A stretch of 64,000 nucleotides of DNA from Minisyncoccota bacterium (GCA_958295675.1 OY282360.1:594026-658025); one strand, 5' to 3'. Numbered from the stretch's first letter, positions 3,383-62,450 are shown. The notes: a model not told the origin generated them from the letters alone. Translations and numbers: made by a program.

Positions 3383-3550
3383 ATGTACATATATTTTTAT
3401 ATACTAAAAATAAAATATGTCAACTTACTGGTGCACTGTACAACCCTATATCACACTCTTTGCAAAGAGCATAACTTGTGCTACACTACAAGTCAGGTGA
3501 TCATTGCAAAAGGATCATCAACACTCACACCACCAGCCAAGGAGCTTGGG

Positions 3551-4123
3551 ATGAAAGCACTAGCATTGATCACGACCATCGGAATGATGGTGTTTACCAC
3601 AACAACCGCATCGGCACAAGATGACCGGCGAGGTTCGTTCTCCGTGCATGCCGGCACCACGGTTGCCAGCATTGACGGCGATGCGCCGTTCAACGGCTCC
3701 GGCTATACGGTCGGCGTTGGCTACAATGTCACCGAGAACATCGCAGTCGGCGCGTCGTACACCAACAGGGAGGGCAAAGACAAGTGCGCGGCGAACTCCT
3801 CGCAGAAATGCGACACTGACATGCAGGACATCCGAGTTGGTGTGCAATACACCAAACGGATGCAGAGCATTGATGTGTACGGAGGCGTTGAAGCCGGTCA
3901 ATACCGATTGAAGGGCGGCCGTATCGCCACATCCGACGAGGAAGAGGGGATTGTCGGCGGTCTCAAAGTCGGCGTCGCCAAGGAGTTCTACATCGGCGGC
4001 GGCGATACGACCCTGATGGTCGCTCTTGAAACCAGCTACCAACGCCTCCTGAGCGGCGATATGTACGCCGATGAGGATGCGGACAGTTTGGGTGTCGGAG
4101 TCAAGGTCGGAACTCGATTCTAG
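3551..4123 (+). CDS. Secreted protein with signal peptide and C-terminal Phe; putative beta-barrel outer-membrane-like protein (paralog 2)
   Basis: SD AAGGAG before the ATG at 3551. Signal peptide MKALALITTIGMMVFTTTTASAQDD. The protein ends ...VGTRF. Same architecture as the upstream gene. A terminator follows. Confidence 0.5.
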   Translation: MKALALITTIGMMVFTTTTASAQDDRRGSFSVHAGTTVASIDGDAPFNGSGYTVGVGYNVTENIAVGASYTNREGKDKCAANSSQKCDTDMQDIRVGVQYTKRMQSIDVYGGVEAGQYRLKGGRIATSDEEEGIVGGLKVGVAKEFYIGGGDTTLMVALETSYQRLLSGDMYADEDADSLGVGVKVGTRF

Positions 4124-15700: not shown

Positions 15701-15705
15701 GCGGG

Positions 15706-21022: not shown

Positions 21023-22726
21023 TCAGCATGCCTTCTCCCTCTTTAGAAGATCAACTTCTTCCTGAAACCGCCGGGCTTTTGAAAGAACAGCATCACAATA
21101 TTGTCTGGCAACCGCAGAACGCCAGTTGCTGCCGGCATAGTACCATCGTGCCGCTTTGCATTCATCCGACTCCGCACCAAGCTCTTTCAAATACAGACCG
21201 GAAGCAAAGAAAGCATCCCGGGGATTCCATGGATTTGAAGGAGATTCAGATCTGGTCTGTTGCCGTATCAAATCCCTATCACTGCGATACTGCCAGGGAC
21301 CGGAGTAAAAACTAATTTGATTAACAGCTGCGCGTGTTGACGGACCGACGCTGCCGGTACCCCGTGTATACCCGTACGGTCGCAGTATGCGCGATGCATA
21401 CCGTTCCTGAAATTTCTTAACGGCACCGGCAACCTCATCTGTGTATGTTGCCGTCTCTTTACCCGGACTGCTTGAACCGCTCTGCGCGATGGTGAAACCG
21501 TTTTGATTGAGAAACTTTTGGAGTCGCTTCACATCCGCACCTTTACTGCCAATCCGCAATGTATCTCTTGTTTTTATTAAATCACCATTAAACCCGCATG
21601 TACCGGTCTTAGTATTTACAAGACCGCCATAGCACACCCATGTTGACGGAATAAATTGCGCCGGTCCCATGGCACCGCCCCAACCAAATCCCGGATTTTT
21701 TGAAACGCGCAATTCATCCGGATCAAATCCGAACAACTTCGCGATATACGGAAATATCGGCTGATCACGAGTAGGATGCATATCAGTAAGATATGTACCG
21801 GTGCCGACATTCTTGCCGAGATCAGATTCATGTTTGATAAGTCCGAGCAGGAACGCAGTGCGGACACCTAACTTTCTTTGCACTTCTTCCGCTATAACAC
21901 ACGCAGAACCGAATGATATTGCTCCGCCTCCGCTGAGTTCAAACAAACGCGTCTGAATACGCGCGGCGCGTGTTTCATATTCATCAATCTGCTCCAGTGT
22001 TTTTTTCTCCACATGCAGCTGCTGCTCAAGCACAACTTCTTTTTGCTGCCTCTGATGTTTCACTTCATTCGCGGCAACCTGCTGCTGCTGCCGCACACGG
22101 CTTTGCTCCTGCCGCTTTGAAGCAAGATCATCAACACTCGCGGTCAGACGGAGTTTGAGATTATCAATGCTTTGTATAGAATCCTCCATTGTTTCACGCA
22201 GCGATGTGTATTCATTCGTTCTTGAAAAGAATGAAGAAATGGTCACATTGGATAACAACAAGTTCATAAAACCTTTTTGTTCAGCTTCGTTAATTCTCTG
22301 AAGAACTTCTCCGAGAAAATGCTGATGCTCCTCAATATCATTATTCAATTGATTCACGGTTTTTTCCTTGCTTGTGATTTCTTGACCGAGTTCTCCGATA
22401 ATCACATCACTGGAACGAATGCGAAGCAACGCTTTATTAATCTCCTGATCAATAAGCAGAATATCATACTCGGTGCTGGTTCTTTCCGCCTGATGTTTCT
22501 GCAGAACACGCTCGGTTTCTTCAATATGCTCCTGACAATTTTCCAACGCGCGTTCAAGAGCACTCCTATCCGATGCGTTCTTATCATCGTTAAGATCAAC
22601 AAAACATTCTTCTGCAAAAACAGTGTAAAAAAAGAATCCACACAGCAAACTAAAAACCAACAAAACGGTACCGCAAAGCGCAGCGATATTATGACACAGC
22701 GACCTCTTCTTCAGAAAGTTCGTCAT
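21023..22726 (-). CDS. Membrane-anchored cell-wall remodelling protein: long coiled-coil, lytic transglycosylase-like core, and PG_binding_1 domain
   Basis: N-terminal TM. About 250 aa rich in heptad-like E/Q/K/L repeats. GLIKHESDLG lytic-transglycosylase-type catalytic Glu motif. C-terminal GADVKRLQKFLNQNGF...VGPSTRAAV peptidoglycan-binding repeat. Confidence 0.6.
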   Translation of the reverse strand: MTNFLKKRSLCHNIAALCGTVLLVFSLLCGFFFYTVFAEECFVDLNDDKNASDRSALERALENCQEHIEETERVLQKHQAERTSTEYDILLIDQEINKALLRIRSSDVIIGELGQEITSKEKTVNQLNNDIEEHQHFLGEVLQRINEAEQKGFMNLLLSNVTISSFFSRTNEYTSLRETMEDSIQSIDNLKLRLTASVDDLASKRQEQSRVRQQQQVAANEVKHQRQQKEVVLEQQLHVEKKTLEQIDEYETRAARIQTRLFELSGGGAISFGSACVIAEEVQRKLGVRTAFLLGLIKHESDLGKNVGTGTYLTDMHPTRDQPIFPYIAKLFGFDPDELRVSKNPGFGWGGAMGPAQFIPSTWVCYGGLVNTKTGTCGFNGDLIKTRDTLRIGSKGADVKRLQKFLNQNGFTIAQSGSSSPGKETATYTDEVAGAVKKFQERYASRILRPYGYTRGTGSVGPSTRAAVNQISFYSGPWQYRSDRDLIRQQTRSESPSNPWNPRDAFFASGLYLKELGAESDECKAARWYYAGSNWRSAVARQYCDAVLSKARRFQEEVDLLKREKAC

Positions 22727-23339
22727 CGGCTTTCTTTCCTCCTTTACCGGTGACCTCAATGTCTTCCATATATGACTCATTTATTTCTTCTTCATCCGCC
22801 TGAGATTTTTCAAGAATGGAAACCACAATCTCATCAGGACTTGTTACCAGTGTAACACCATTCGGAAGCAGTAAATCAGAAACCAAAAGGCGTGAACCGA
22901 TGGTTTTCAGCACGCTGACATCAGCATCTAACTGCGCGGGAATATTCTGCGGCAGAGCGCGAATACTCACCTTATCAAGCACCACAACCATCTGACCTTC
23001 ATCGATTTTCACACCGGGTGCTTCGCCGATTACCCGCACCGCCACCTCATGTTCCACCTCATGCGTCGCATCAACAAAAAGAAAGTCAGCATGCAGCGGC
23101 ATATCGGATACCGGATGAAAACTGATGTCCTGGAGAATAACCTGCTTGCCGGACATATCACCGTCCGTTTCAATAACAACCGAGCCGGATACGAGTGATT
23201 TCAAAAGAGATTGTGTGTCCACACTGTACAGCGCGGACGGCTCCCCCTTGCCGTAACAAGCAACGGGCGTCTGACCATCCCTGCGCAGAGCGGCAACTTT
23301 CTTACCGGTGACGGATCTTTTCAAAAAAGTGAGTTTCAT
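22689..23339 (-). CDS. rplY: 50S ribosomal protein L25, general stress protein Ctc form
   Basis: N-terminal L25 fold pattern (KRSVTGKKVAALRRDGQTPVACYG) plus the Ctc-type C-terminal extension. Confidence 0.7.
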   Translation of the reverse strand: MKLTFLKRSVTGKKVAALRRDGQTPVACYGKGEPSALYSVDTQSLLKSLVSGSVVIETDGDMSGKQVILQDISFHPVSDMPLHADFLFVDATHEVEHEVAVRVIGEAPGVKIDEGQMVVVLDKVSIRALPQNIPAQLDADVSVLKTIGSRLLVSDLLLPNGVTLVTSPDEIVVSILEKSQADEEEINESYMEDIEVTGKGGKKADDELSEEEVAVS

Positions 23340-23342
23340 GGT

Positions 23343-23500
23343 TATTTTTTTGTCTCCTTGTACTTCGTATGCTTTCTGATCTTCGGATTATACTTCATCA
23401 ACTCAAGCGCATCAGGATTTTGCTTTTTATTTTTCCTGGTAACATAACTTATCTCACCGGTTTCGGTACACTTCATTTTCACAATATGATCTTGTGACAT
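23343..23500 (-). CDS. rpmG: 50S ribosomal protein L33 with an apparent 1-nt deletion that interrupts the frame
   Basis: The frame starting at the ATG gives MSQDHIVKMKCTET and then stops. The frame ending at the stop gives ...GEISYVTRKNKKQNPDALELMKYNPKIRKHTKYKETKK. Joined, the two pieces align to L33 (e.g. [33 protein letters not shown]). The break lies in the CCG/TTT run near 23457-23461. Confidence 0.5.
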
Positions 23501-23856
23501 ATATACCAGTGTAGCACAAAAGAACTATAGGTGCCAATGTACCCTTTATGTTGATACACAGAAAAATGAGGAGCAACGCCTGGGACAACGATTACTCTGC
23601 CCAGTTGAGCAAGTGACTGATTAACCGAAACCAACCTATTCCTCTCTTCCTCATTTGGCACCTCATACACTGCTCTCAGATTATTGGCACCGGCTGCATG
23701 TATGAATGTAAGAATATCAACACTGCTGACATCATTTCTGTCAGTAAAATTCACATCAACACACGCACCGTCAAAATGACATGATGCTCTATGTTGTATA
23801 GTGGGCGGCCACGATTCAGTAATTCTCCAATCACGAACCTCATCATTACTACTCAA
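23479..23856 (-). CDS. Hypothetical protein (125 aa)
   Basis: ORF overlaps the downstream gene by ATGA. No recognisable motif. It overlaps the rpmG start by about 20 nt. Confidence 0.3.
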   Translation of the reverse strand: MSSNDEVRDWRITESWPPTIQHRASCHFDGACVDVNFTDRNDVSSVDILTFIHAAGANNLRAVYEVPNEEERNRLVSVNQSLAQLGRVIVVPGVAPHFSVYQHKGYIGTYSSFVLHWYICHKIIL

Positions 23857-24332
23857 GGATCTGCAGTCGTGGTAGACGGTTCAGGTACACTAAATGGAGA
23901 TCCATACCTATACCCAAGAGCAGCGAACGCAAATTTGACAATCAACCACGCACTAAGTACAAGAATAAGACCGAATGCTGACCATCCTATATGCTTTTTT
24001 GCCGCACTCGTCACCGCTTCAGGACCGCCCCAAAATACATTAATCGACATTCTTACACCGCTCCAGACGATGACAAGAACAAAACCGATTGTAGCAAACC
24101 AAATGATCACTTTTAAAATTTTATTCGCCAAAGTAAATAGGTGAGATATTTTGCACCCGTCCCCGTCGTTCTGCCCGGGAAAACCACAATCAACGACAAG
24201 ACCTTCACCCTCAGACGGAATAGGGTCAATGGCATCCGACGGCAGCGCAGACAAAATAGGTGTGCTAAAAAACAATGAAACGAAGCACAATAGTACGATA
24301 GAATAAATAAAAAGGTAACATTTCCGAATCAT
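23853..24332 (-). CDS. Small secreted membrane protein with pilin-like architecture (signal peptide, Cys pair, then TM-loop-TM)
   Basis: Signal peptide. CGFPGQNDGDGC. Two hydrophobic helices separated by a short loop. Same layout as the five island paralogs at 39.6-43.3 kb. Confidence 0.4.
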   Translation of the reverse strand: MIRKCYLFIYSIVLLCFVSLFFSTPILSALPSDAIDPIPSEGEGLVVDCGFPGQNDGDGCKISHLFTLANKILKVIIWFATIGFVLVIVWSGVRMSINVFWGGPEAVTSAAKKHIGWSAFGLILVLSAWLIVKFAFAALGYRYGSPFSVPEPSTTTADP

Positions 24333-33787: not shown

Positions 33788-33870
33788 GAAAACAGAGGAC
33801 TCGAACCTCCATGGGTTGCCCCACCGTCTCCTAAGACCGGCGCGTCTACCCGTGCCGTCAATCTTTGATT
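33788..33870 (-). pseudogene. tRNA-Leu-derived pseudo-tRNA fragment
   Basis: About 57 nt (part of the D-arm, anticodon arm, variable arm and T-arm) is near-identical to the adjacent tRNA-Leu(TAG). There is no complementary acceptor stem and the D-stem pairing is broken. Confidence 0.35.
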
Positions 33871-33910
33871 GATGCTGACAAGCAGTCGCCACAGGTGGCG
33901 GAAGTATCAG

Positions 33911-33992
33911 GTGCCGAGGAGAGGACTCGAACCTCCATGGGTTGCCCCACCGGTTCCTAAGACCGGCGCGTCTACCAATTCCGCCACCTCGG
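33911..33992 (-). tRNA. tRNA-Leu (anticodon TAG), long variable arm
   Basis: GCCGAGGTGGCGGAATTGGTAGACGC...CCGGTCTTAGGAACCGG...GGAGGTTCGAGTCCTC...CCTCGGCA. Anticodon loop CTTAGGA. Confidence 0.85.
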
Positions 33993-33997
33993 CATAG

Positions 33998-34462: not shown

Positions 34463-35194
34463 CTACTCCGACGTGTTGAAGAACACATAGCCGGGGTTGG
34501 GTACACCATCAAGTGCCGCGGCTGCCCTGTTGGCAAGATCTCGCTCTGCAAGAGTCGCATCAACCTGAGCGGCAAGCATGGCGAGTCGCTCTTGATCAAG
34601 CCGCGCCATCTCAAGATTGGCGCCGTTGTCAAAGTCAGCCGAAACAGGGTCCTCCTGCTTGTGCGGGAAAGATTGCCCTTGGTCGGCACCGGTCGTCACA
34701 TCACCTACAGACCTGGCAACATGAGCTGCGAGAGCCCGCTCACCGGTGTTCTCAAGCAGCGCACTAGCGTTGATCTTGTCTCCGCCAACAATGTGCACTC
34801 CCGGAGGAGTGTCGAAGAGATCTTCTTCGGCAACAGACCGACGACCGTCAATCCACTCGATGGTCGCTACCCGAAGGGCATGGTTCCAACCGCGCGTTCC
34901 AGGGCGAACCCGGTACTTGGAGTCACTCAGATACGTACTCCAAGTCGCGGTGACATCACGAGCACTCACCCGATCCTGCGGACCAAGTTGCCGATTGCTG
35001 CCGGTCAGCGCGTAGATCGCGTTGGCGGTTTCCCGCGTGATCTTCGAAGAGCCGGACGGCACCTTGGAATCGAAAGAGACCGCGAGCTCGGTGTTGAGGG
35101 CAGAGATCGTTTGTGCCTTTCCGTAGTCCCCTTGCCCCGCAAAAGCGGTAGCACCGAAGAGAACGGCGATGAAAAGGAAAAGTAGTTTGCGCAT
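34463..35194 (-). CDS. Secreted protein, island family A (paralog A1)
   Basis: SD AAGGAG. Signal peptide MRKLLFLFIAVLFGATAFAGQ. Shares the IxGGDxIN...LENTGERALAAH...TTGADQ module with the other three paralogs. High GC. Confidence 0.6.
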   Translation of the reverse strand: MRKLLFLFIAVLFGATAFAGQGDYGKAQTISALNTELAVSFDSKVPSGSSKITRETANAIYALTGSNRQLGPQDRVSARDVTATWSTYLSDSKYRVRPGTRGWNHALRVATIEWIDGRRSVAEEDLFDTPPGVHIVGGDKINASALLENTGERALAAHVARSVGDVTTGADQGQSFPHKQEDPVSADFDNGANLEMARLDQERLAMLAAQVDATLAERDLANRAAAALDGVPNPGYVFFNTSE

Positions 35195-35559
35195 TTCAGC
35201 ACTCCTTTTGTTTACGGGGTAGGTTAAGTAAAACGGCTGAGTGAATCACTCTTCCGCTCTGTTTGGTAGATTAGAGAGATGTTACACACACGGTGTTGAA
35301 CTCCCAACCCTGCCCAAATCTACTGTGTAGTATAGAGAAAAAAATACTCTTGTCAAGACCACCCAAAGAATAGACAATAATAGATTATTATTTTATAATA
35401 AAACACACCTATACACACGATAAAATATGTGGTGTAGTGTATGGAATAGCATATACATAAAAAATCAATCCTCTATGAAAGTAAACTTCCATAGAGGATT
35501 GTGAGATCTCCTACTCCGCCGGTGCATCACCAGCAGGCATAGAACCACCGACTGCACGA
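35171..35559. repeat. 389-bp junction cassette, copy 1: 3' tail of gene B, terminator, AT-rich promoter region, SD, and first ~8 codons of gene A1
   Basis: Essentially identical to 36070-36456. Confidence 0.8.
35456..35501 (-). terminator. Rho-independent terminator inside junction cassette copy 1
   Basis: CAATCCTCTATG..CATAGAGGATTG 12-bp stem plus T-run on the minus strand, just after the gene B stop. Confidence 0.6.
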
Positions 35560-36092
35560 GCAACCGGATTGGTGCCGCCCAGTTCCCGCATCATGTCCCC
35601 GGCGGGGAAACATTGAGGCGTGCGCACGCTGCGATTGACGAGGAATTCAAAGTACCGCCGAGCCGTATCAAGTCTGGCCAAATCGGCACCACCCTCTATC
35701 AACTGCACAAACTCCTCAGCGCGCTTCTGCAGCACAAGCGGAGGAATCTCCGTGCCGCTGAGACAGGCCTTCACATCCTCGGTACTGGCATTTGCCATCC
35801 ACCGGGCATAGGCATCAAGCCCATCGTCAACGCGCTTGTAGATCGTGATCGCCCCACCGGAGTTCACGACGGCACCGAAGACGGCGTCATCTCCCACATT
35901 GCGAGCGGTGCCGTCGATTTCGGACCCTTGAACGATTTCCGCGCTGCCGCCGCGTTTTGCAACGGATTCGACCATCTTCGCCGCATCTGCGCTTTCCAGA
36001 ACGAACTGGAAACTGACAGTCGGTTCAGCAACCGCAGCAGTGCCAATGCCGAGAGAGAGAACGGCGGTGAAAAGGAAAAGTAGTTTGCGCAT
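35511..36092 (-). CDS. Secreted protein, island gene B. Shares its signal-peptide start and its GGSMPAGDAPAE C-terminal tail with paralog A2 via the cassette
   Basis: Signal peptide MRKLLFLFTAVLSLGIGTAAVA. Unique ~160-aa body. The 5' and 3' ends lie inside the repeated cassettes. Confidence 0.55.
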   Translation of the reverse strand: MRKLLFLFTAVLSLGIGTAAVAEPTVSFQFVLESADAAKMVESVAKRGGSAEIVQGSEIDGTARNVGDDAVFGAVVNSGGAITIYKRVDDGLDAYARWMANASTEDVKACLSGTEIPPLVLQKRAEEFVQLIEGGADLARLDTARRYFEFLVNRSVRTPQCFPAGDMMRELGGTNPVARAVGGSMPAGDAPAE

Positions 36093-36456
36093 TTCAGCAC
36101 TCCTTTTGTTTACGGGGTAGGTTAAGTAAAACGGCTGAGTGAATCACTCTTCCGCTCTGTTTGGTAGATTAGAGAGATGTTACACACACGGTGTTGAACT
36201 CCCAACCCTGCCCAAATCTACTGTGTAGTATAGAGAAAAAAATACTCTTGTCAAGACCACCCAAAGAATAGACAATAATAGATTATTATTTTATAATAAA
36301 ACACACCTATACACACGATAAAATATGTGGTGTAGTGTATGGAATAGCATATACATAAAAAATCAATCCTCTATGAAAGTAAACTTCCATAGAGGATTGT
36401 GAGATCTCCTACTCCGCCGGTGCATCACCAGCAGGCATAGAACCACCGGTCGTCAT
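36070..36456. repeat. 389-bp junction cassette, copy 2
   Basis: Near-identical to 35171-35559. Contains the 3' tail of A2, a terminator, a promoter region and the 5' start of gene B. Confidence 0.8.
36354..36399 (-). terminator. Rho-independent terminator inside junction cassette copy 2
   Basis: Same 12-bp hairpin and T-run as copy 1. Confidence 0.6.
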
Positions 36457-36948
36457 GTCATCTGCAGACCTGAGAACATGAGCTGCGAGAGCCCGCTCAC
36501 CGGTGTTCTCAACCCGCGCAGTAGGGTTGATCTTGTCTCCGCCAACAATGTGCAATCCCGGAGGAGTGTCGAAGAGATCTTCTTCGGCAACAGACCGACG
36601 ACCGTCAATCCACTCGATGGTCGCTACCCGAAGGGCATGGTTCCAACCGCGCGTTCCAGGGCGAACCCGGTACTTGGAGTCACTCAGATACGTACTCCAA
36701 GTCGCGGTGACATCACGAGCACTCACCCGATCCTGCGGACCAAGTTGCCGATTGCTGCCGGTCAGCGCGTAGATCGCGTTGGCGGTTTCCCGCGTGATCT
36801 TCGAAGAGCCGGACGGCACCTTGGAATCGAAAGAGACCGCGAGCTCGGTGTTGAGGGCAGAGATCGTTTGTGCCTTTCCGTAGTCCCCTTGCCCCGCAAA
36901 AGCGGTAGCACCGAAGAGAACGGCGATGAAAAGAATTACATTACGCAT
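36409..36948 (-). CDS. Secreted protein, island family A (paralog A2); chimera of the A1 body with the gene B C-terminal tail
   Basis: Residues ~8-150 identical to A1; DNA 36470-36925 near-identical to 34715-35170. The C-terminus switches to ...TTGGSMPAGDAPAE, the same tail as gene B. Own SD AAGGAG. Confidence 0.55.
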   Translation of the reverse strand: MRNVILFIAVLFGATAFAGQGDYGKAQTISALNTELAVSFDSKVPSGSSKITRETANAIYALTGSNRQLGPQDRVSARDVTATWSTYLSDSKYRVRPGTRGWNHALRVATIEWIDGRRSVAEEDLFDTPPGLHIVGGDKINPTARVENTGERALAAHVLRSADDMTTGGSMPAGDAPAE

Positions 36949-37085
36949 GTATGTCTCCTTGTAAGTTAGTTAATAAGGATGGAAGGGTCTCAAAGTATGG
37001 ATGAGTACTACCCTTCAACATCCAACCCTAAAAAGATTTTAGCAAATAAAATATGAATTGTCAACTACAGTAGTATATAAATTTC

Positions 37086-37131
37086 AAAAAGACAAAAATA
37101 AACCCTGTGGGATGTGTATCCCACAGGGTTT
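37086..37131 (-). terminator. Rho-independent terminator downstream of paralog A3
   Basis: AAACCCTGTGGGAT..ATCCCACAGGGTTT hairpin plus T-run on the minus strand. Confidence 0.55.
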
Positions 37132-37143
37132 AACAACCAACCA

Positions 37144-38376
37144 CTAGCGATCGCTCTCGCCGCAGTAAACGACTGAATCTACCCGTTCACCATCAGAGTT
37201 AGTATACGATCTTGTACACAAACGCTGTGTGTAAACAGATTCCCTCCTCATCGTCATAGGGTTAAAATCGCTTGCTACACTGATGTCAACCTTACACGCC
37301 TTCGGATTACTTTCAACAACGAGTCCCACAACTGTGGAGTCGTCGTTTATGTTAAGTGCCTGCATCTGATCTACTGAAACGGAGTAAGCGCTCCCACAGA
37401 CACGAATCGGATTTTTCCGAAGATCACCGATAAAGCGACTCAAGGACATCTGATCAGTCCAACGTATATACAGTCGACATTGTTTTTCTTCTGTATTGAC
37501 AAGCGCACCGATGACCTTACCGTTGTTGCCTCTATTAGCGATAACGCTATCGTTCATGACAACATTGTAAGAGTCCCGACAAAATTCAATCAATGGATTG
37601 TTGACGGAGGGTTTGCGACTGATTTCCGCTACAGCTGCAACAACAGCACTCTCACCATCATTTGCAACAATGGTGTTTGCTATACTGTGCCCGCCAACAA
37701 TGATCAAATGAGATCCACTCTCTGAATCAGTAAGTGAACTTTTAGCAGACAAGATGTGTTCTAGCACAGCATCAATCCCAACATCACCACCAAGTCCATC
37801 AAAAACTGAAGTTCTCTTAGGCAGATATGTAGGTTGAGCATCAGAACCTGATCGCGGCTGATCAGCACCAGTCGTCACATCTCCAGCCCTGAAAATATGA
37901 GCTGCGAGAGCCCGCTCACCGGTGTTCTCAAGCTGCGCAGTAGAGTTGATCCGATCTCCGCCAATAATGGTCAGTTTTGGAGGGGGTTTGAGGAGATCTG
38001 CTTCAGCAGTAGCGTGAAAACTCATCGCCCATTGCACGATGGCCCTACGGGCGTCGGAGTCCAGTCGCCTGGATCCAGGATTCACATCCGTGAACCCCTG
38101 ATTGCGAAGGAAGGAAGTCAAAAGAGAAAATGTGTCCTCTTTTCGGAACCGCTGATCACTAGTCAACGGTTCCATACCCGCAAGGGTACGGACAGCATTC
38201 GCTGTTTCACGGCTGACAACGGGAGACCCTGCCTGAACAGACGGATCCACGAACTCAGACAGTGCTGTGTTGAGGACGCTTATCGCTCCTCGATTGCCAA
38301 CATCGTTAGCAACTGCGGCAGGACCGCTGAGAGCCATAGCGAATGCTACGGCGAAAGAGAGAATTGCTTTACGCAT
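37144..38376 (-). CDS. Secreted protein, island family A (paralog A3), with an internally duplicated GG-x-I-x-T...G-E-x-A module and a Cys-containing C-terminal domain
   Basis: SD GGAGG, 9 nt before the ATG at 38376. Signal peptide MRKAILSFAVAFAMALSGPAAVA. Motifs LTIIGGDRINSTAQLENTGERALAAHIF and LIIVGGHSIANTIVANDGESAVVAAV. Confidence 0.55.
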   Translation of the reverse strand: MRKAILSFAVAFAMALSGPAAVANDVGNRGAISVLNTALSEFVDPSVQAGSPVVSRETANAVRTLAGMEPLTSDQRFRKEDTFSLLTSFLRNQGFTDVNPGSRRLDSDARRAIVQWAMSFHATAEADLLKPPPKLTIIGGDRINSTAQLENTGERALAAHIFRAGDVTTGADQPRSGSDAQPTYLPKRTSVFDGLGGDVGIDAVLEHILSAKSSLTDSESGSHLIIVGGHSIANTIVANDGESAVVAAVAEISRKPSVNNPLIEFCRDSYNVVMNDSVIANRGNNGKVIGALVNTEEKQCRLYIRWTDQMSLSRFIGDLRKNPIRVCGSAYSVSVDQMQALNINDDSTVVGLVVESNPKACKVDISVASDFNPMTMRRESVYTQRLCTRSYTNSDGERVDSVVYCGESDR

Positions 38377-38535
38377 TTGTTGCTCCTCCAATAAAAACCA
38401 AATTTCCACATGTAAGATGGAAATCCCTATTTATATAATAACACTTTATTTGTAAAAGTCAAATAATAAAAAAGAGAGCGCTGCTTGCATATTTCAGCAA
38501 ACAACGCTCTTGAGAAGTCCGGCTAGACAGGTTGT

Positions 38536-39522
38536 CTAAATCGAAGCTTGCCGAAGCAGAGGCGCAGACGGCACACCTCTCAGTCCAAGTGTCTTCAAAA
38601 AGTCAAGAGGAATACCGGCGAACAAAAAACTTCCCGGATTCAGGTAGTTATCTTCCAAGCGTCCGCCGCCTGATCTCTCAGCTCTGTGTTCCCATCCCTC
38701 TATGACATACGGAATGGTGAGACAGTAGTCAAACGCTATGTCCCACTCCACATTCTGCAGATTTGTCACGCAAGTCCCGGAATCTACCCGCTCGTACCCG
38801 TCAACAGGACCGGAGATCGCTCGACGAATGACAGGGTTATCTCCACCGCTAAATGCAGCAAGGTACTTCTGCGCAAGACGATCCCTCTCTTCCATACCTG
38901 GTTTGGCAAAGAACATTTCGTAGTTCCGTCCTGCTCTTACCACCTTCTGATGCCACTTCAAGACGACGCATCTATAGGCATGCCTATAGTCATCCGTCAG
39001 CGGATTACTCACAATTGGCCTCCGAAAACCAGAAGATGTTGAGTACCATCCTTGAGAAGATGTATCAAGGGAAAGGTCAACACGAACAATCTCCGGACAA
39101 GCCGGTGGCATACCAATCGGTTGCAACCCTACATCCTCTAAAACAGCTGCTGCTGGTACAACTTCTGCCAAAGGAATGTCTTTCGGAAGAGGTGGGAGTT
39201 GGAGTGAAGGTGGAGTAACGGCAACGGTGTGATGCTCACGCACCACATCAAACTGATTGGCGAACAGCATGATCACCAACAGAACCAGACCAGTGATCAC
39301 CGCAATGACCACTGACTTCCGATTGCGTTCCCACCAAGTCAGATGACGGGGCCGATACGGTTGCCGTCGTCGGTTTTGGTGTTGGTTTCTACGACCACCA
39401 CCAGGTCTGACGACAATTTGGGGGGGTCTGGTATATGCCTTGTACACCACACACCCCAAGCCCACTACTGCAAGTGTCACCAATAGAAGCACTACGATGA
39501 CGACAATTTGAAAAAAATCCAT
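38536..39522 (-). CDS. Two-TM membrane protein with an Arg-rich cytoplasmic loop and a ~250-aa extracytoplasmic domain
   Basis: Strong SD AAGGAGG. TM1 IVVIVVLLLVTLAVVGLGCVV. Loop RPGGGRRNQHQNRRRQPYRPR. TM2 VVIAVITGLVLLVIMLF. Confidence 0.5.
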   Translation of the reverse strand: MDFFQIVVIVVLLLVTLAVVGLGCVVYKAYTRPPQIVVRPGGGRRNQHQNRRRQPYRPRHLTWWERNRKSVVIAVITGLVLLVIMLFANQFDVVREHHTVAVTPPSLQLPPLPKDIPLAEVVPAAAVLEDVGLQPIGMPPACPEIVRVDLSLDTSSQGWYSTSSGFRRPIVSNPLTDDYRHAYRCVVLKWHQKVVRAGRNYEMFFAKPGMEERDRLAQKYLAAFSGGDNPVIRRAISGPVDGYERVDSGTCVTNLQNVEWDIAFDYCLTIPYVIEGWEHRAERSGGGRLEDNYLNPGSFLFAGIPLDFLKTLGLRGVPSAPLLRQASI

Positions 39523-39651: not shown

Positions 39652-40290
39652 CTATTCATCCGTCCTTTTTATCCATTCATCAATTAGGCTATTCTTTGTT
39701 GAAGGATCAGAGTCTTTATACTGTTCAGATATCTGACTCAATTGCGCAATTGCAGTACTTTGCTGTGCAGGTGATAAACTACGCAAATGAGTAATTGCAG
39801 CACTTTGGTGTGCTGAAGATAGACTATTCCAATGTGTAACGGAACTTCCAAGATGAGCAAGTGAACCTGGTACTTGGTGGACAACCGAACCAGCAGCAGG
39901 AGATCCACGAGGCAGGCGTAAAGATTCAATATTGGTATTTCCTGCGTTTCCGGGACCACCACTACCTGAACCGAGTAAAATAAGTCCTAAAAAGTATACA
40001 AGACCCCAAATGCTGGTCAGGACAAAAATGGCAAGCAGTCCCCAAAATATCTTCTTTTTTGCTTCATCTAAACCCTCTTTACCTCCTCCGGTATTCAAAA
40101 TAAAGGTCGCAAGATTCCAAAAGAAAAAAAGAAAGGCACAACCAACCGCAATTATAACCAGCAAATTTACAATGTTTATAAAACTAGAAAGAATATTAAT
40201 AATCCTGCCCACTTCCGCAGCGGCGGTCTGCGCAGATGCAATAGGTGCTGCTAGTATGCCGATACAAGAGAGTACAATATACGATGCCAT
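39652..40290 (-). CDS. Pilin-like small membrane protein P1 (VirB2/TrbC-like layout) with a Ser/His/Leu-rich repetitive C-terminal extension
   Basis: Signal peptide MASYIVLSCIGILAAPIASAQT. TM FLFFFWNLATFIL. Loop NTGGGKEGLDEAKKK. TM IFWGLLAIFVLTSIWGLVYF. Paralogous to P3. Confidence 0.5.
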   Translation of the reverse strand: MASYIVLSCIGILAAPIASAQTAAAEVGRIINILSSFINIVNLLVIIAVGCAFLFFFWNLATFILNTGGGKEGLDEAKKKIFWGLLAIFVLTSIWGLVYFLGLILLGSGSGGPGNAGNTNIESLRLPRGSPAAGSVVHQVPGSLAHLGSSVTHWNSLSSAHQSAAITHLRSLSPAQQSTAIAQLSQISEQYKDSDPSTKNSLIDEWIKRTDE

Positions 40291-40394
40291 ATACGAGAAG
40301 TATACTATATAGACATAACAAGAATGTTGGTTATAAACAAAAAATTATGACCGTAACAGTGGGATAAACCACTGCTACGGTCATGGAATGTGCG

Positions 40395-41261
40395 CTAAAG
40401 CGCAACAAGCTGATACAGGTCAGATGTCATCACGATGGGTTGTCCGCCGCGCAGCAATGCAGTGCACGCGCGAGAGTAGACATTCCCTCCGTCCGTCTGT
40501 GCCGGCAGGTGAGAAATACAATCACGAACCGTGATCTCCTCATCACCCATCACAATGCTGCCAGCAACAGAAGGCATCTCGGCAAGGTTGTATGCGAGTG
40601 ATGCGTTGTATGCGCACCACGTTGCTGCAGGATACACACGAACACCGCCGCGCCTGAGATCAACAACATGCTGAGCACTTGGCGGTTGGCTTGCATACCG
40701 ATCGCAAGCGTTTTCCGACGCGCCAAACATCGTCGCAACCGGAGCTCCGACGAAATCAGCCACATCGTCCCGCTGCTGGTAGGTGAAAGCACCAACCAAC
40801 ACAAGAACGGCACCGGTGGTGGCCCAGCTAACGCGTGGCCACTGACCGAAAACACGGCGAACTACGCCGGTTACGCCGGAAACAGCACCTCGCACAGCAC
40901 GGCGAACTACGCCGGCTACGCGGGAAACAGTACCTCGCACAGCACTCCACACCTTCCCGGAAGCAGTGGCGACACCGCTGCCGAAACGGGAAAACAGACC
41001 GGGCTGCTGCTCTTGAGCGGCGGCGTCTACTGCGGCCGTTGCCGTTGCGGTCTGCGGCTGCGGATCTTGAGCACCCGCTGCTGCGGGCTGCTGCTCTTGA
41101 GCGTCTACTGCGGCCGTTGCGGTCTGCTCGGGCTGCTGCTCTTGAGCGTCTACTGCAGCCGTTGCGGTCTGCTCGGGCTGCTGCTCTTGATCGGTGTCGG
41201 CATCTGCTGGCAAAAACTTCCCTTGCGCATCGCGTCGCTGACCGTTACCATTTTCACTCAT
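40395..41261 (-). CDS. Repeat-containing membrane protein: acidic QQPEQTATAAVDA repeats, a basic VRGxVS repeat region, one TM helix, and a Cys-containing extracytoplasmic domain
   Basis: Very GC-rich ORF. 45-bp tandem DNA repeats encode the EQQPEQTATAAVDAQ units. Confidence 0.5.
   Translation of the reverse strand: MSENGNGQRRDAQGKFLPADADTDQEQQPEQTATAAVDAQEQQPEQTATAAVDAQEQQPAAAGAQDPQPQTATATAAVDAAAQEQQPGLFSRFGSGVATASGKVWSAVRGTVSRVAGVVRRAVRGAVSGVTGVVRRVFGQWPRVSWATTGAVLVLVGAFTYQQRDDVADFVGAPVATMFGASENACDRYASQPPSAQHVVDLRRGGVRVYPAATWCAYNASLAYNLAEMPSVAGSIVMGDEEITVRDCISHLPAQTDGGNVYSRACTALLRGGQPIVMTSDLYQLVAL
41010..41215. repeat. 45-bp coding tandem repeat, about 3.5-4.5 copies (VNTR-like)
   Basis: GGGCTGCTGCTCTTGAGCGTCTACTGC[G/A]GCCGTTGCGGTCTGCTC recurs head-to-tail with minor variants. 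Confidence 0.7.
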
Positions 41262-41464
41262 CGCTTTCTCCTTCGGTTAAATGGAAATGAACCTGACTCT
41301 ACAAATAAAGCCAGAACCAGTACACAAGATACCATAAACAATCAAAACACGCAACTATACAAGAAATATTGTTTAATATACTGTATATTAAACAATATTA
41401 TAACGAAAATATGCAGTATTTATAGGATAATTTTACTATTTTCCTGATTGACTACCTCAATGTG

Positions 41465-41779
41465 CTACCTCAAAAATTGATACTCAGCAAACTGTATGTG
41501 CTCCTTTTTATTCAACTGCTGATCCGACTGAGATAAGCGGGCAACAAAGGAAAAAAGGGTATAAATTGAGAATATAATAAAAATACCAAGAATAATGATG
41601 CTCAAATTCTTGAACATACCGCCCCGTTTTTCCGCGGCATCAGCATTGGCGACAAATCGAACTGCAGTCACAATCAGCAGCAACAAGGCAATGAATGCCA
41701 TAGCGGCAATGAGCGGATCTACGATATTGTTAAACAAACTGTTTGCAACACCGCTTGCTGTTACTGCATAGACAATCAT
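41465..41779 (-). CDS. Pilin-like small membrane protein P2
   Basis: 104 aa. Leader, TM IAAMAFIALLLLIVTAV, loop RFVANADAAEKRGGMFKN, TM LSIIILGIFIIFSIYTLF. Confidence 0.45.
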   Translation of the reverse strand: MIVYAVTASGVANSLFNNIVDPLIAAMAFIALLLLIVTAVRFVANADAAEKRGGMFKNLSIIILGIFIIFSIYTLFSFVARLSQSDQQLNKKEHIQFAEYQFLR

Positions 41780-41835
41780 ACAGTAGTATAGTATACAAGA
41801 TTACAAAAAATAGAAAACAATTATGGTGTTTATGT

Positions 41836-42273
41836 CTACTTAGTAGTGTTTCCTTTTTGATTAAATGTTACACCAGGCACTTTAATCTCATTTATATTTG
41901 CATCAGTACCTGCACCAACACCAAAGATAGAACGCACAAATGTAATAAGACCCCATAGCGAAGTTATCACGACCATAGCAAGAACCCCCCACAACATATT
42001 TGCTTTTGCTTTTGCTTTTGCATCTTCATCACTCTTCAAAACAAACATTGCAAGATTAAAAAAGAAAAACAAAAAGGCAAGTGACACAACAACAATGGTT
42101 GATGTGCCGACAAGACCGCCGACAGCACCGACACTATCGGTAAGCTGATCCAAAGGATTCTCAGTATCAACCTTCGGCGTTTGAGCAAGAACACTTGTCA
42201 TGCCAAGAACCGCAGTAAGCCCAACGGCAAATAATAAAGTACTAACTGACTGAATAGATTGTGATAGTTTCAT
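41836..42273 (-). CDS. Pilin-like small membrane protein P3
   Basis: Signal peptide MKLSQSIQSVSTLLFAVGLTAVLGMTSVLAQT. TM FLFFFFNLAMFVL. Loop KSDEDAKAKAKAN. TM MLWGVLAMVVITSLWGLITF. Confidence 0.5.
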   Translation of the reverse strand: MKLSQSIQSVSTLLFAVGLTAVLGMTSVLAQTPKVDTENPLDQLTDSVGAVGGLVGTSTIVVVSLAFLFFFFNLAMFVLKSDEDAKAKAKANMLWGVLAMVVITSLWGLITFVRSIFGVGAGTDANINEIKVPGVTFNQKGNTTK

Positions 42274-42398
42274 ATACTATGGTAATAAAGTAAGTAATTA
42301 TTTTCTTTTCTCAGGTAATCGGATACTGTAAGAACACTGTTAGTATACTATTTCGCCATACACACAAAAAAATACTGTGGATAACTTCTGATTGTACT

Positions 42399-42779
42399 TT
42401 ATGCGGAAAAGAGGATGCGCAATACCGCTATAATTCCCCACAGCGTGAAAACCAGTAACAAAATAATGACCGGATACCACAACCGCTTCACTGCCAACTC
42501 AGCCATATTTTTACTGCCGCCATGCGTCTCTTTGATGTAGACAACGATACCATACACAAAAACCAAAAATAACACCGTTATCGCCAGTGGAATCAGCGTG
42601 CCGCCAACAACTTTGATAATCGTATCAACAAGTTCTCTCAACGATAGTTTTTTAAAAGGGAAAAAAGAGGAGTCAGCAGCATACGATACCAACGGCACAA
42701 CAAGCAGAACCGCAGAGGACACAACACCGACTAGCGGTGCCCATCTCCATGTCCATTGATTGCTTCCCATGCACTTCAT
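42399..42779 (-). CDS. Pilin-like small membrane protein P4
   Basis: Signal peptide. TM LIPLAITVLFLVFVYGIVVYI. Loop KETHGGSKNMAELAVKRL. TM WYPVIILLLVFTLWGIIAVL. 4-nt overlap with P5. Confidence 0.45.
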   Translation of the reverse strand: MKCMGSNQWTWRWAPLVGVVSSAVLLVVPLVSYAADSSFFPFKKLSLRELVDTIIKVVGGTLIPLAITVLFLVFVYGIVVYIKETHGGSKNMAELAVKRLWYPVIILLLVFTLWGIIAVLRILFSA

Positions 42780-43261
42780 ATAATGTTATGAGTACCGGAA
42801 GATACGCTGATGAGTGGATTATCGGGACCATTGTCATTATATAACGATGTCGCTTCGGGTTCGCTGTCCTTCAGCACCTGATTAACCGTGTTTTGTATTA
42901 CACTCAGAATGCCTTTTATGCCTAATACAATAAACAGACCGATAAAAGCAATGACAAGGGACCTTTTTAATTCAGCAAATTTTTCCGGCTTGGACGCACC
43001 TGCCAAGACCATCTGAAAACCAATATACACAATTGCAACCGTCATAATCGGTATAAGGATGAGTGTAACAGCATCTAATATGCGCAAGAGAAGTTCTGTC
43101 AAACTGTTAGATGTGATAGGGTTACATAAAATTTTTCCTGTTTCACATCCGGTTTCCGCAACAGCAGGTGTTTCCGCAACAGCAGGTATAGCGTAAAGCA
43201 TAAAAACAACCGAGGTTATACAAAGAACACAGTACGCGGTTAGCGATGATATGCGTTTCAT
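42776..43261 (-). CDS. Pilin-like small membrane protein P5
   Basis: Signal peptide MKRISSLTAYCVLCITSVVFMLYAIPAVAE. Cys pair. TM LILIPIMTVAIVYIGFQMVL. Loop AGASKPEKFAELKRS. TM LVIAFIGLFIVLGIKGIL. Confidence 0.45.
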   Translation of the reverse strand: MKRISSLTAYCVLCITSVVFMLYAIPAVAETPAVAETGCETGKILCNPITSNSLTELLLRILDAVTLILIPIMTVAIVYIGFQMVLAGASKPEKFAELKRSLVIAFIGLFIVLGIKGILSVIQNTVNQVLKDSEPEATSLYNDNGPDNPLISVSSGTHNII

Positions 43262-43278
43262 ACATCATGCAGTATACA

Positions 43279-44541
43279 TCACCGAAACAGATTCAAGACA
43301 GTTTTTGCGCCGGTTTCCGCGGTCTGTGTTCCGACCACAACTCCCTGAAGAGTTTGCAACAGAGTTTCTAGTTCCTCTGAAGTCAAATACACACTTCTGC
43401 TTGAGAACAAGGAATCAATAAAAACTCGTTCAGTTGCTGTTGATTCATTGTCCGGATAGTACCATTTCACTGCCGGCGGCAGAGAGAACAGTTCGGAAAT
43501 ATCATTATCTTTATCATACAAAACACCGAGCATATCAAGCAATACCGCCAATGCCGCCTCCGGTGCCCTGCTCCGCTTCGGAACCGCGAACGCGTAGAGT
43601 GTTGACGGTGTTACTGCTATGCCATTCCGGTCAAATTGCGGCAACGGTGCGACCCGAACAGGAATATTCGGATTTGCGCGCTGCAGTTCATGAAATTCGC
43701 TGATATAGCCGGGATACAGAAAAAGGTTGCCGCCCGTGAACATATCACGAGCATCGGCATGCGCGACACTCCAGGTGTATACCGACGAACGGGGATGAGC
43801 GAAACTGGCATAAAACCTAAGAATGTCCCTCGCTGAACGCTCCGTCAAACCGATATCCGACTCCCGCACCTGCAGTATGAGCGCGGCAAAAAGATCCGCA
43901 GCATGGCGATAATTGCCATATGCGCCGAGCGGTATCAATGCCTGCGATGTATCACGGTACCGTTCGTTAACCTTCAAAAACGAACCGGCTGACAACTGTG
44001 ACCACTCGGTCGGCAATGCGCGAATACCGTTCCGCAATCGCATATTCTCATTGTAATAAAGCACCATCGCATCCGAGAAAAACGGTATGGCAACATAACC
44101 GTCATTGGGACGAATAAACAAATTTGCCGGCTGAATAAAGGTTTGCTCGTACCGCGCTAAGGGAAAGTAAGAAAACGGAACGGTCTGCAAGGTATCCTCA
44201 AGAGCAAAAATTGTATGGTGGTCAATGAGGAGCAGATCCGGCTGTCTGCCGACCGCGATTGCTCCTATGTACTCATCCTGTATGGTATCAGGATTCTTTT
44301 CAACATATCTGACATTCCCGTACAGCCGATCAGAAAAATTGCTTAAACGCCGAGCAATCGGAGCTATCTCACGAATATCAATGGTACCCCACACTAAAAT
44401 ATCCACCGTCTGAGTCCGTGTGGATTGATCATCTGCTGCTCTTTTTTTTAAAAAACCGTATGCCGCCAAACTCCCGAATCCGACAAGAATAAACACACCG
44501 AAAACAACATACAGTATGAGTTGAAAACTTTTTGCCTCCAT
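43279..44541 (-). CDS. N-terminally membrane-anchored extracellular solute-binding-like protein (SBP family 1-like)
   Basis: TM anchor then ~390 aa with periplasmic-binding-protein-like segments. No cognate ABC permease or ATPase is adjacent. Confidence 0.45.
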   Translation of the reverse strand: MEAKSFQLILYVVFGVFILVGFGSLAAYGFLKKRAADDQSTRTQTVDILVWGTIDIREIAPIARRLSNFSDRLYGNVRYVEKNPDTIQDEYIGAIAVGRQPDLLLIDHHTIFALEDTLQTVPFSYFPLARYEQTFIQPANLFIRPNDGYVAIPFFSDAMVLYYNENMRLRNGIRALPTEWSQLSAGSFLKVNERYRDTSQALIPLGAYGNYRHAADLFAALILQVRESDIGLTERSARDILRFYASFAHPRSSVYTWSVAHADARDMFTGGNLFLYPGYISEFHELQRANPNIPVRVAPLPQFDRNGIAVTPSTLYAFAVPKRSRAPEAALAVLLDMLGVLYDKDNDISELFSLPPAVKWYYPDNESTATERVFIDSLFSSRSVYLTSEELETLLQTLQGVVVGTQTAETGAKTVLNLFR

Positions 44542-60977: not shown

Positions 60978-62450
60978 TTAAACAGGGAGATTTTCCGGCG
61001 GTTCCACGGTAGTTGACAGAGTCCGTTGGACTGATGGCGTGCGTACATGCACAGTGGGAAAATGACACACCGTCGTCAATGTTTCAGTAGTCATGACAGT
61101 TGCAATACGCTTTCTTGACGGTTCCCGCAGTTTTTTTGACCATCGCCGCTCATCAGCGGCACAGTAGGCGTACAGAGCGGGTGCGTACCAAAACATGCGA
61201 TCACGAAAAAGTTGAAGAAGCAATTGTTTTTCCGCATCCTTATCACGACGGGGCGGTTCTAACGACGGAACATTATATACATCATCAAGAAGAGTGCCGT
61301 GCGGAACAAAGGAGTTATCCTCGGTCTTGGTCAGTTTATAAATCGCGGTCATCGGCGTGATACGAGCCGGTGTGAACACATTCTTTGAAGCGACATATAT
61401 CAGCCGAATGCCGACCTCAAGCGCCTGCTTCTCCCGCAGTCGCGGACCAATCTCCTGCAGCCGTTTCTCGGACTGTGTAAGTACCACGGAATCAGCGCCG
61501 TCCTCGCGCCCGCTCCGTATTTTCTTCTCCAATGCAACAAGCGCGTTTTGTATCTCTTTAGGAAGCTTTTGCTTATTCCAATACTCACGATCCAGAGGAT
61601 TATCAGCGGCATCTTCCGGCTGTCGCGGATACTTTTGTGTTCGGAAAACATACTGCAGCCACATTTGCTCGTCTCCCCGTATAGATCCGAAAAAATCGTA
61701 CAAAGATGCGAGCGGATCAACGAGCGGCTGGGGTTGCTGAGCCGGCAAACTGGTGCCGGACAATGCGCCGGGGCTCTGGCGCTTCTCAAGCTGAAATTCA
61801 ACATAAGTTTTTATCGGCAATGCATTGTTTGATTCAAATTTCCATTCAAACGCGAACATGCTGTGGGTCTCTTCATCATACTCAATATCGTATGTATAAT
61901 CATCAATTTCAAGAATCTGTGCTTTAGGATAGAATGCAAAAATGGCCGAGCGTACCGCGTCAACCCAAAAAGCGCGAGTGCTAATGATGAATGCCACACT
62001 CCCGCCACGGGATACAATTTCAAAAGAATACACAGGTCGTTTCCTTCCGTTCCACCACACCGGAAACCACAGCGATTCACCGCTGCCGTAAGAAATCATT
62101 TCAAGCACAGCCTCCATATTTGCCAGGGTCTCCTGTGTATTGTCCGGAACACGCACCTCCAGTATTTTCCTTTCTTCGGTGAGATACGCCAACTGCTGCT
62201 TATACCGACCGATTTCAATATAGGCATAGAGTGCTGCGGCAATAAGGAGAATAACAATTGACGAAAAGACAAGAAAAACGGGCAGAAATTTAAGCGCGGC
62301 AAATGCCGACGGATTTGTAAAGAATGCGTCAATCGGATACGCAGGAGTCAGAATATTGTAAACGAGAAATGCGGCGTATGCGAGAAACAGCGCCATAAAG
62401 CCGACCTTGGCGAACGGAACGAATATATTGTCTCTGAAGATAGTGAACAC
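60978..62450 (-). CDS. Membrane protein (N-terminal multi-TM region plus ~400-aa soluble domain), function unknown
   Basis: Clean 490-aa ORF. TM helices within the first 90 aa. No recognised motif. Confidence 0.45.
   Translation of the reverse strand: MFTIFRDNIFVPFAKVGFMALFLAYAAFLVYNILTPAYPIDAFFTNPSAFAALKFLPVFLVFSSIVILLIAAALYAYIEIGRYKQQLAYLTEERKILEVRVPDNTQETLANMEAVLEMISYGSGESLWFPVWWNGRKRPVYSFEIVSRGGSVAFIISTRAFWVDAVRSAIFAFYPKAQILEIDDYTYDIEYDEETHSMFAFEWKFESNNALPIKTYVEFQLEKRQSPGALSGTSLPAQQPQPLVDPLASLYDFFGSIRGDEQMWLQYVFRTQKYPRQPEDAADNPLDREYWNKQKLPKEIQNALVALEKKIRSGREDGADSVVLTQSEKRLQEIGPRLREKQALEVGIRLIYVASKNVFTPARITPMTAIYKLTKTEDNSFVPHGTLLDDVYNVPSLEPPRRDKDAEKQLLLQLFRDRMFWYAPALYAYCAADERRWSKKLREPSRKRIATVMTTETLTTVCHFPTVHVRTPSVQRTLSTTVEPPENLPV

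Follow-up and report, generated by a model that had tools for sequence, protein, structure and literature searches.

The window analyzed in this work, a 64-kb stretch of the housekeeping chromosome of a Patescibacteria (Minisyncoccota) genome of roughly 0.72 Mb, includes an array in which five pilin-type genes, named P5, P4, P3, P2, and P1, and one non-pilin gene, named X288, lie within 3.6 kb (Table 1). The family assignment, topology, orthology, and synteny of the encoded proteins, as well as their pattern of variation, could be established directly, and we consider it probable that they are Sec-exported VirB2-like subunits of a monoderm-type type IV secretion system (T4SS) encoded elsewhere, representing five non-redundant types of which one is leaderless. 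Membership in the pilin family is more secure than this reading as a whole, and the formation of a filament is less so. An earlier note, made from the sequence alone, had pointed out the five open reading frames (ORFs), an overlap of 4 nucleotides between P4 and P5, and a sixth protein of the same layout encoded at a distance from the array. The five ORFs are present on the minus strand with the coordinates and lengths listed in Table 1, the overlap encompasses nucleotides 42776-42779, and the sixth protein, named P6, shares both the layout and the family of the others. All six genes have conserved orthologues in related genomes and can therefore be considered real genes. A seventh copy was not detected when a profile made from P1 to P6 was compared to all 821 ORFs of at least 40 amino acids in the window. 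Sequences identical to P3 and P6 are recorded on the contig of 724,510 bp to which the window belongs.

The assignment to the family comes from profile searches, in which PF18895 (T4SS_pilin, gathering score 26.6 bits) was the top Pfam match for all six proteins. P5 (40.0 bits) and P6 (35.5 bits) scored above the cut-off, and P1 to P4 are tied to these two through the profile of the paralogues and through orthologues that carry precomputed PF18895 matches. Lower similarities were found to PF04956 (TrbC/VirB2, gathering score 27.9 bits) for P5 (24.2 bits, E 3.9e-5), P3 (18.1 bits), and P2 (14.9 bits), all of them short of membership, and to NCBIfam NF045849, the pilin-like conjugal transfer protein of the Mycoplasma integrative and conjugative element (ICE), for P2 to P5 (20-30 bits with 29.9 for P3, the cut-off being 40 bits); P1 and P6 showed no match to NF045849. 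These matches support the T4SS-pilin arrangement that had been claimed, and no unrelated small-membrane-protein family was indicated. Because the other two-helix membrane proteins of the window miss these families, the pilin-family match is not a mere reflection of hydrophobic composition. At E≤1e-3, a family profile including 13 members recovered 16,803 of 1.84 billion cluster representatives, a number that fell to 1,074 at E≤1e-10; a tblastn search of 72,556 plasmids with P5 rendered no match. Type IV pilins, which are abundant in Patescibacteria, and Com pseudopilins are likewise small secreted filament subunits, but they consist of one N-terminal helix and a globular head instead of two transmembrane helices. 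None of the six proteins matched N_methyl, the type IV pilin family, and the class III leader and N-methylation motif are not found in their sequences. Type IV pili were rejected on this basis, in agreement with the earlier note.

Kyte-Doolittle scans of P1 to P6 bore out the proposed two-helix layout: each protein includes two strong hydrophobic segments connected by a K/E/D-rich loop of 13-17 residues, with a net charge, as read off the sequences, of about +1 to +3. In P1, P3, P4, P5, and P6 the hairpin is preceded by a hydrophobic N-terminal leader with an AxA-type signal-peptidase-I site and then by a short outward segment. The predicted sites, with a slash at the point of cleavage, are ASA/Q for P1, VLA/Q for P3, SYA/A for P4, and AVA/E for P5. 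A leader had been claimed for every protein of the array; this holds for these four and fails for P2, whose reading frame is open for only seven codons upstream of the ATG. The leader is also missing in all six P2 orthologues, that is, in seven genomes in total. With the exception of P2 and its orthologues, the combination of a leader, two helices, and a short positive loop is that of a VirB2-like architecture. The AlphaFold2 model of P5, made with a 23-sequence alignment, has a leader helix and a helix-turn-helix hairpin (residues 52-90 and 93-132) with a pLDDT of about 80. The C-terminal tail varies in length among the proteins of the family. P4-type proteins terminate flush with helix 2, and P1-type proteins from other genomes have long low-complexity tails, for example with PINPDL repeats, that are unrelated between genomes. 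The repetitive C-terminal domain described before for P1 does exist, as a degenerate unit of about 15 amino acids in two copies (THWNSLSSAHQSAAI and THLRSLSPAQQSTAI), at the protein level only; Tandem Repeats Finder did not detect it in the DNA. The sequence that P1 and P3 were said to have in common corresponds to 33% identity over 120 amino acids (E 1e-17). The relationship of these two to P4 and P6 is more distant, and P5 joins the others only through profiles.

The relatives found in a genome collection are complete chromosomes of 641 and 662 kb recorded under the name Candidatus Paceibacterota, which is synonymous with the phylum Minisyncoccota (former Patescibacteria or candidate phyla radiation, CPR). 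Clustering of 38 pilin-like proteins, encoded in the window and at seven related loci, defined five orthologous groups (P5, P4, P3, P1, and P2), each consisting of the protein from the window and those from six other genomes, and left P6 as a group of its own. There are three exceptions to the one-to-one correspondence: one genome has P3 in duplicate, an eighth genome contributes a solitary P3-like gene, and a P3-type outlier joined only at a looser threshold. Identities between genomes, calculated from best local alignments, were 36-67% as compared to a maximum of 33% between paralogues. The P4 orthologues (38-56% identity) come after P5 in all relatives. P5, P4, and P3 always keep this order, and some genomes have P1 and P2 in exchanged positions. 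As judged from these comparisons, the five array genes can be considered ancient, individually conserved types and not recent copies.

The array is also conserved with respect to its upstream side. The SBP-like gene, coding for a membrane-anchored protein with similarity to solute-binding proteins (SBP), ends 17 nucleotides from P5, and the order gyrA, SBP-like gene, pilins is found in L002/L006, L004, L005, L007, L010, L011, and L022, the number of pilins per locus being five to seven (L002, L004, L005, L007, L010, L011, L018, and L022). The SBP-like protein, about 420-450 amino acids long in the relatives, matches Pfam SBP_bac_8 (33.2 bits, cut-off 27) and has an N-terminal transmembrane segment; in L002, L004, L005, L007, L010, and L011 the pilins are directly preceded by orthologues with 38-54% identity. 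In L018, a more distant relative labelled 'Candidatus Pacebacteria', a methyltransferase gene lies between gyrA and the SBP-like gene, and the latter (29% identical) still abuts seven pilin-like ORFs. Since the linkage persists in L018 despite the separation from gyrA, the stable unit is that of the SBP-like gene and the pilins, and the SBP-like gene is probably part of a conserved module with the array. The text of the 2025 survey of VirB2 arrays makes no mention of the gyrA/SBP-like synteny (PMC12102498). In one related complete genome, four N_methyl type IV pilin genes interrupt the VirB2-like array (L002, 12783-15007), separating its P3-type from its P2-type genes.

Upstream of P5 (43262-43291), P3, P2, P1, and P6 there is no Shine-Dalgarno sequence; instead, a TATACT/TATAGT-like box, often preceded by TG, ends 3-11 nucleotides before the ATG. 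The sequence of these regions suggests individual promoters and leaderless or near-leaderless mRNAs for the five genes. A -10-like box of its own just before the ATG of most array genes would also suit an array that encodes interchangeable versions of a single major pilin, expressed alternately for antigenic or host-range switching as proposed for Bartonella and Anaplasma. The paralogues are highly divergent, their exposed segments evolve fast (dN/dS, the ratio of nonsynonymous to synonymous substitution rates, of 0.4-0.7), and adaptation to different host strains was suggested in the 2025 survey (PMC12102498). However, each of seven genomes has one orthologue per type, in the fixed order and with the excess of between-genome over paralogue identity described above, the types differ in build (P2 is leaderless, P4 tail-less, and P1 long-tailed), and P4 is translationally coupled to P5. 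The one-to-one orthology, the different builds, and the P4/P5 coupling indicate old subfunctionalised genes and not a variation cassette, and interchangeable variants are consequently an improbable explanation. Bartonella, Anaplasma, and Rickettsia resemble the present case in being host-dependent and in having consecutive, divergent VirB2-like genes that vary mostly in exposed parts. They are, on the other hand, diderm Alphaproteobacteria with a recognisable VirB2 whose paralogues are viewed as antigenic or host-range variants, unlike the five types found here, each of which is conserved across genomes. That array pilins can be old, non-redundant types in a fixed order argues for a composite structure over simple antigenic variants, and the existence of five individually conserved types suggests distinct roles within one structure.

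The regions of these proteins that change over short evolutionary distances were identified by comparison with the close relative L022 (gyrA 99.8% identical, dS about 0.09). While the dN of gyrA is 0.001, the values for the array genes increase from P2 (97% amino acid identity, dN 0.012, dN/dS 0.07) through P3 (91%, 0.054), P4 (87%, 0.088), and P5 (84%, 0.126) to P1 (71%, 0.242). When the five proteins are summed, the identical residues are 365 out of 377 in the hairpins and loops (97%), 96 out of 113 in the leaders (85%), 41 out of 73 in the predicted outward N-terminal segments (56%), and 89 out of 189 in the C-tails (47%). In the case of P1, residues 1-123 are nearly identical, and parts of the tail cannot be aligned. 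Constancy of the hairpin and loop combined with variable termini would be expected of proteins whose termini are outward and whose loop is oriented toward a lumen or the cytoplasm, as in the solved structures of the F- and T-pilus. Variation confined to the predicted outward termini between close relatives is also what is expected of a surface-exposed polymer that meets hosts or phages.

Several observations weigh against the interpretation of these proteins as VirB2-like subunits of a T4SS encoded elsewhere. Four of the six stay below the PF18895 cut-off (P1, 24.6; P3, 22.0; P2, 20.2; and P4, 14.8 bits). When the family was compared by hhalign to a reference alignment made from six annotated VirB2/TrbC proteins that are encoded in virB1-virB2-virB3 operons, the probability was 20.6%, and it was 11.7% when the 52-sequence family alignment was used. 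The only match to the family profile among PDB sequences was a designed protein (E=0.025), and a Foldseek search of the PDB with the P5 model rendered a single match (E=9), hairpins being too simple for the method. Given its simple shape, a two-helix hairpin can have originated independently, and the putative kinship to classical VirB2 draws on weak sequence signals and topology. Furthermore, a Pfam scan of roughly 50 larger ORFs of the 64-kb window found no VirB4, VirD4, VirB6, or other T4SS parts, as had been claimed before, and no T4SS ATPase or channel gene was found in the flanks (±10 kb) of nine related loci, so that neither the window nor these flanks encode the pilins together with VirB4 and VirB6. 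No filament or pilus of the PF18895 family has ever been reported (PMC12857230), and many family members elsewhere are single-chain 'poly-pilins' with 2-8 tandem hairpins behind one leader, such as P0024 (820 amino acids), P0045 (606 amino acids), and P0022 (335 amino acids).

As for the machinery, VirB2-like pilins lie apart from virB4 in roughly 40% of the Patescibacteria assemblies that have both, and in Paceibacteria virB4 is typically near dnaA/dnaN (PMC12102498). A location of the machinery elsewhere, one of the two options given in the earlier note, fits this literature, because pilins are often distant from virB4 and the Paceibacteria virB4 is near dnaA. If the array were instead unrelated to type IV secretion, its genes would code for lineage-specific two-helix membrane or surface proteins that act with the SBP-like protein; a surface fibre independent of the T4SS and a complex for uptake or anchoring would be examples. 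This would be compatible with a 64-kb window and relatives' flanks in which no T4SS gene was found, with the SBP-like gene as the only invariably linked neighbor, and with a homology to genuine VirB2 that is not statistically secure. Nevertheless, PF18895 is the best match for all six proteins, with TrbC as a secondary match, and this family adjoins virB4 in most Patescibacteria assemblies having both and is found inside the essential T4SS cluster of Southlakia epibionticum (PMC12102498; PMC10633639), which renders an origin outside type IV secretion very improbable.

The poly-pilins bear on a different alternative, in which the subunits are associated with a T4SS but form a short membrane-embedded or wall-spanning ring or conduit and not an extended pilus. 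Poly-pilins resemble multi-pass membrane proteins, and a membrane-embedded assembly fits them at least as well as a filament; P4-type proteins have their C-terminus flush with the second helix, and Gram-positive-type T4SSs are generally without pili (PMC10633639; PMC12857230). In the opposite direction, the fast-evolving N-terminal segments and C-tails, and the long hypervariable tails of P1, suggest exposure outside and not burial in a machine, and a pilus-like structure is favoured in reviews, although as speculation only. On balance we regard the absence of an extended pilus as possible and somewhat doubtful.

According to the preferred interpretation, that of VirB2-like subunits of a T4SS encoded elsewhere, P1, P3, P4, P5, and P6 would be inserted in the membrane via Sec and cleaved by signal peptidase I, and P2 would be inserted without a leader. 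Each protein would adopt a two-helix hairpin with the short positive loop in the cytoplasm and both termini outside. The subunits would be extracted from the membrane by an MPF-FATA-like T4SS including VirB4 and VirB6, encoded elsewhere and in this lineage usually near dnaA, and their assembly would produce a filament or a wall-spanning conduit serving a host-dependent lifestyle. P2 could be the invariant core or the initiator; P5, P4, P3, and P1 would expose their fast-evolving N-terminal segments, P5 and P1 would also expose fast-evolving C-tails, and the membrane-anchored SBP-like protein would be a probable partner. In this scheme we infer Sec export, the link to a VirB4 machine, filament formation, and the division of labour, and the function is proposed by analogy with a member of another Patescibacteria class. 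An unlikely elaboration of the scheme is a heteromeric surface filament module in which the five types and the SBP-like protein have a fixed division of labour, with major and minor pilins and the ATPase encoded apart. P2 would then act as the initiator or base, one or more proteins as major subunits, and P1 as a hypervariable adhesin-like subunit, possibly with a non-classical mode of assembly.

The array is a further example of a feature that has already been published. Quinonero-Coronel et al. (2025) screened 3,035 genomes of Patescibacteria for PF18895 and PF04956 and found VirB2-like pilins in 1,948 VirB4-containing assemblies, in 1,135 of which they are near virB4; the survey lists a total of 441 VirB2 arrays in 383 Patescibacteria assemblies (PMC12102498). 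These arrays consist of 2-11 genes of the PF18895/PF04956 type, in tandem or with one non-pilin gene between them, with a mean identity of 25% and a maximum of 54% (PMC12102498). The five genes described here, with a single non-pilin interruption and in a Patescibacteria genome, agree with that definition. In S. epibionticum, Wang et al. (2023) showed that epibiotic growth requires the series of pilins located inside the T4SS cluster, which are therefore essential (PMC10633639). In a 2025 review the Patescibacteria pilins were described as the only VirB2-like pilins of monoderm T4SSs, and a pilus-like conduit for signal exchange with the host or uptake of host molecules was put forward as speculation (PMC12857230).

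With the known Patescibacteria arrays (SEML1_0006-0019 of S. epibionticum ML1, the 'Sec secreted array' of Nanosynbacter lyticus TM7x, and the 441 catalogued) the present one has in common the PF18895 family, a tandem organization of sequence-divergent and structurally alike small proteins with an occasional non-pilin gene inside, a paralogue identity averaging about 25%, and a location on the chromosome of an ultra-small monoderm with a reduced genome. Unlike that of S. epibionticum, it lies outside any T4SS cluster, after gyrA and the membrane-anchored SBP-like gene. In addition, published arrays are most abundant in Microgenomatia and Saccharimonadia, and this one was found in a lineage labelled 'Paceibacterota/Pacebacteria'. 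What the present analysis adds is the constant orthology of five types, the absence of a leader in one of them, and the localization of variation to the termini.

Agrobacterium VirB2, RP4 TrbC (PF04956), and F-plasmid TraA are also small proteins with a long leader and a signal-peptidase-I site, which is predicted in our case, two hydrophobic helices, a short basic loop, and both termini outside, again a prediction for the array proteins; the weak TrbC match (24.2 bits for P5) points in the same direction. The differences are that the TrbC cut-off of 27.9 bits is unreached, that hhalign probabilities are 12-21%, that there is no adjacent virB1/virB3/virB4 operon, that the host is a monoderm, that five or six paralogues take the place of a single gene, and that there is no evidence for cyclisation or acetylation. 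The Mycoplasma ICE protein Mbov_0395 (NF045849) is a comparable small two-helix pilin-like protein from a wall-less or monoderm conjugation system; the array proteins differ from its family in that all scores are lower than the 40-bit cut-off and P1 and P6 do not match.

The Patescibacteria T4SS has proved essential in the only species in which this was tested. It mostly occurs without a relaxase, a recognisable coupling protein is missing in the one experimentally studied species, and, in contrast to the systems of other monoderms, it is accompanied by pilin arrays. The locus described here leaves this overall picture unchanged and adds the conserved SBP-like neighbor as a candidate partner of the pilins.

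Table 1. Coordinates of the pilin array, its neighbors, and the solitary pilin-family gene in the 64-kb window
Feature	Coordinates	Strand	Length	Characteristics
SBP-like gene (membrane-anchored, solute-binding-protein-like)	43279-44541	minus	420 amino acids	directly upstream of the array
P5, probable VirB2-like T4SS pilin, first array gene	42776-43261	minus	161 amino acids	leader, Cys-x-Cys N-terminal segment, hairpin, variable C-tail
P4, pilin paralogue	42399-42779	minus	126 amino acids	terminus directly after second helix
P3, pilin paralogue	41836-42273	minus	145 amino acids	motif AFLFFF(W/F)NLA ... SLWGL
P2, leaderless pilin paralogue	41465-41779	minus	104 amino acids	most conserved member
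X288, non-pilin gene	40395-41261	minus	288 amino acids	between P2 and P1
Terminator-like hairpin	40347-40384	minus		strong, 16-bp stem and T-run, between X288 and P1
P1, pilin paralogue	39652-40290	minus	212 amino acids	long repeat-containing hypervariable C-terminal tail
P6, solitary sixth pilin-family gene	23853-24332	minus	159 amino acids	between tRNA-Tyr/clpB and a 125-amino acid ORF

The non-pilin gene X288 has a G+C content of 0.60 as compared to 0.46 for the window and is preceded by a Shine-Dalgarno-like GGAG sequence; both X288 and its neighbor X328 have GGAG(G) sites, in contrast to the pilin genes. The X288 gene includes 45-nucleotide tandem repeats that code for 15-amino acid units, Q/E/A/T-rich and R/V/G-rich, and the protein, which belongs to no Pfam family, has a conserved C-terminal domain with Cys in addition to a weak transmembrane segment. 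The L022 version of X288 is 71% identical and differs in the number of repeats (341 versus 288 amino acids). X288 was not present at the loci of six more distant relatives.

The downstream side of the array (34463-38409) is occupied by a family of signal-peptide proteins (ORFs 34463-35194, 35511-36092, 36409-36948, and 37144-38409) that have no Pfam match. Their G+C content is 48-59% (58-59% in the three shorter genes, 46% in the window), and two members are 92% identical. At the DNA level there are 300-nucleotide repeats, with 35158-35457 identical to 36056-36355 (100%) and 34687-34986 similar to 36444-36743 (96%), and these levels of identity indicate a very recent duplication within the family. 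The loci of the more distant relatives lack this family, and in L022 its members are more numerous and strongly diverged (33-47% identity). X288 and these downstream secreted proteins were considered as conserved parts of the array and rejected, since they are missing in more distant relatives and have a G+C content of about 58-60%. A 67-nucleotide segment at 33794-33860, not called by ARAGORN, matches part of the neighboring tRNA-Leu gene (33910-33993) with 91% identity and may be a tRNA remnant bordering the variable high-G+C region.

The solitary gene P6 overlaps by 4 nucleotides the 125-amino acid ORF (23479-23856) and lies about 1 kb from a gene for a membrane-anchored coiled-coil protein (21023-22780) that matches PG_binding_1 and, weakly, SLT_2. 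Two other genomes have a P3-like pilin gene that is likewise solitary and directly follows that of a Peptidase_M23 protein (L008, 8440-9900; L021, 8463-9884). Solitary pilins may be paired with cell-wall hydrolases.

The remainder of the window codes, among others, for GroEL, two RNase J paralogues, ClpB, IF-2, MurA, GyrA, thymidylate kinase, ribosomal protein S1, FtsA, FtsZ, and a class I tRNA synthetase. X328 (38536-39522), with two transmembrane segments, and a 490-amino acid protein (60978-62450) were considered as further T4SS parts and rejected because neither has family matches; X328 is also without a homologue in the loci of more distant relatives. The two RNase J paralogues are adjacent (15652-17544 and 17549-19435), the first being without detectable metallo-beta-lactamase domain matches. 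Two adjacent genes on the plus strand (2665-3324 and 3383-4123) code for signal-peptide proteins that match OMP_b-brl, an outer-membrane beta-barrel family, one with 45.4 bits (cut-off 28.7) and the other with 23.5 bits, which is unexpected in a lineage regarded as monoderm.

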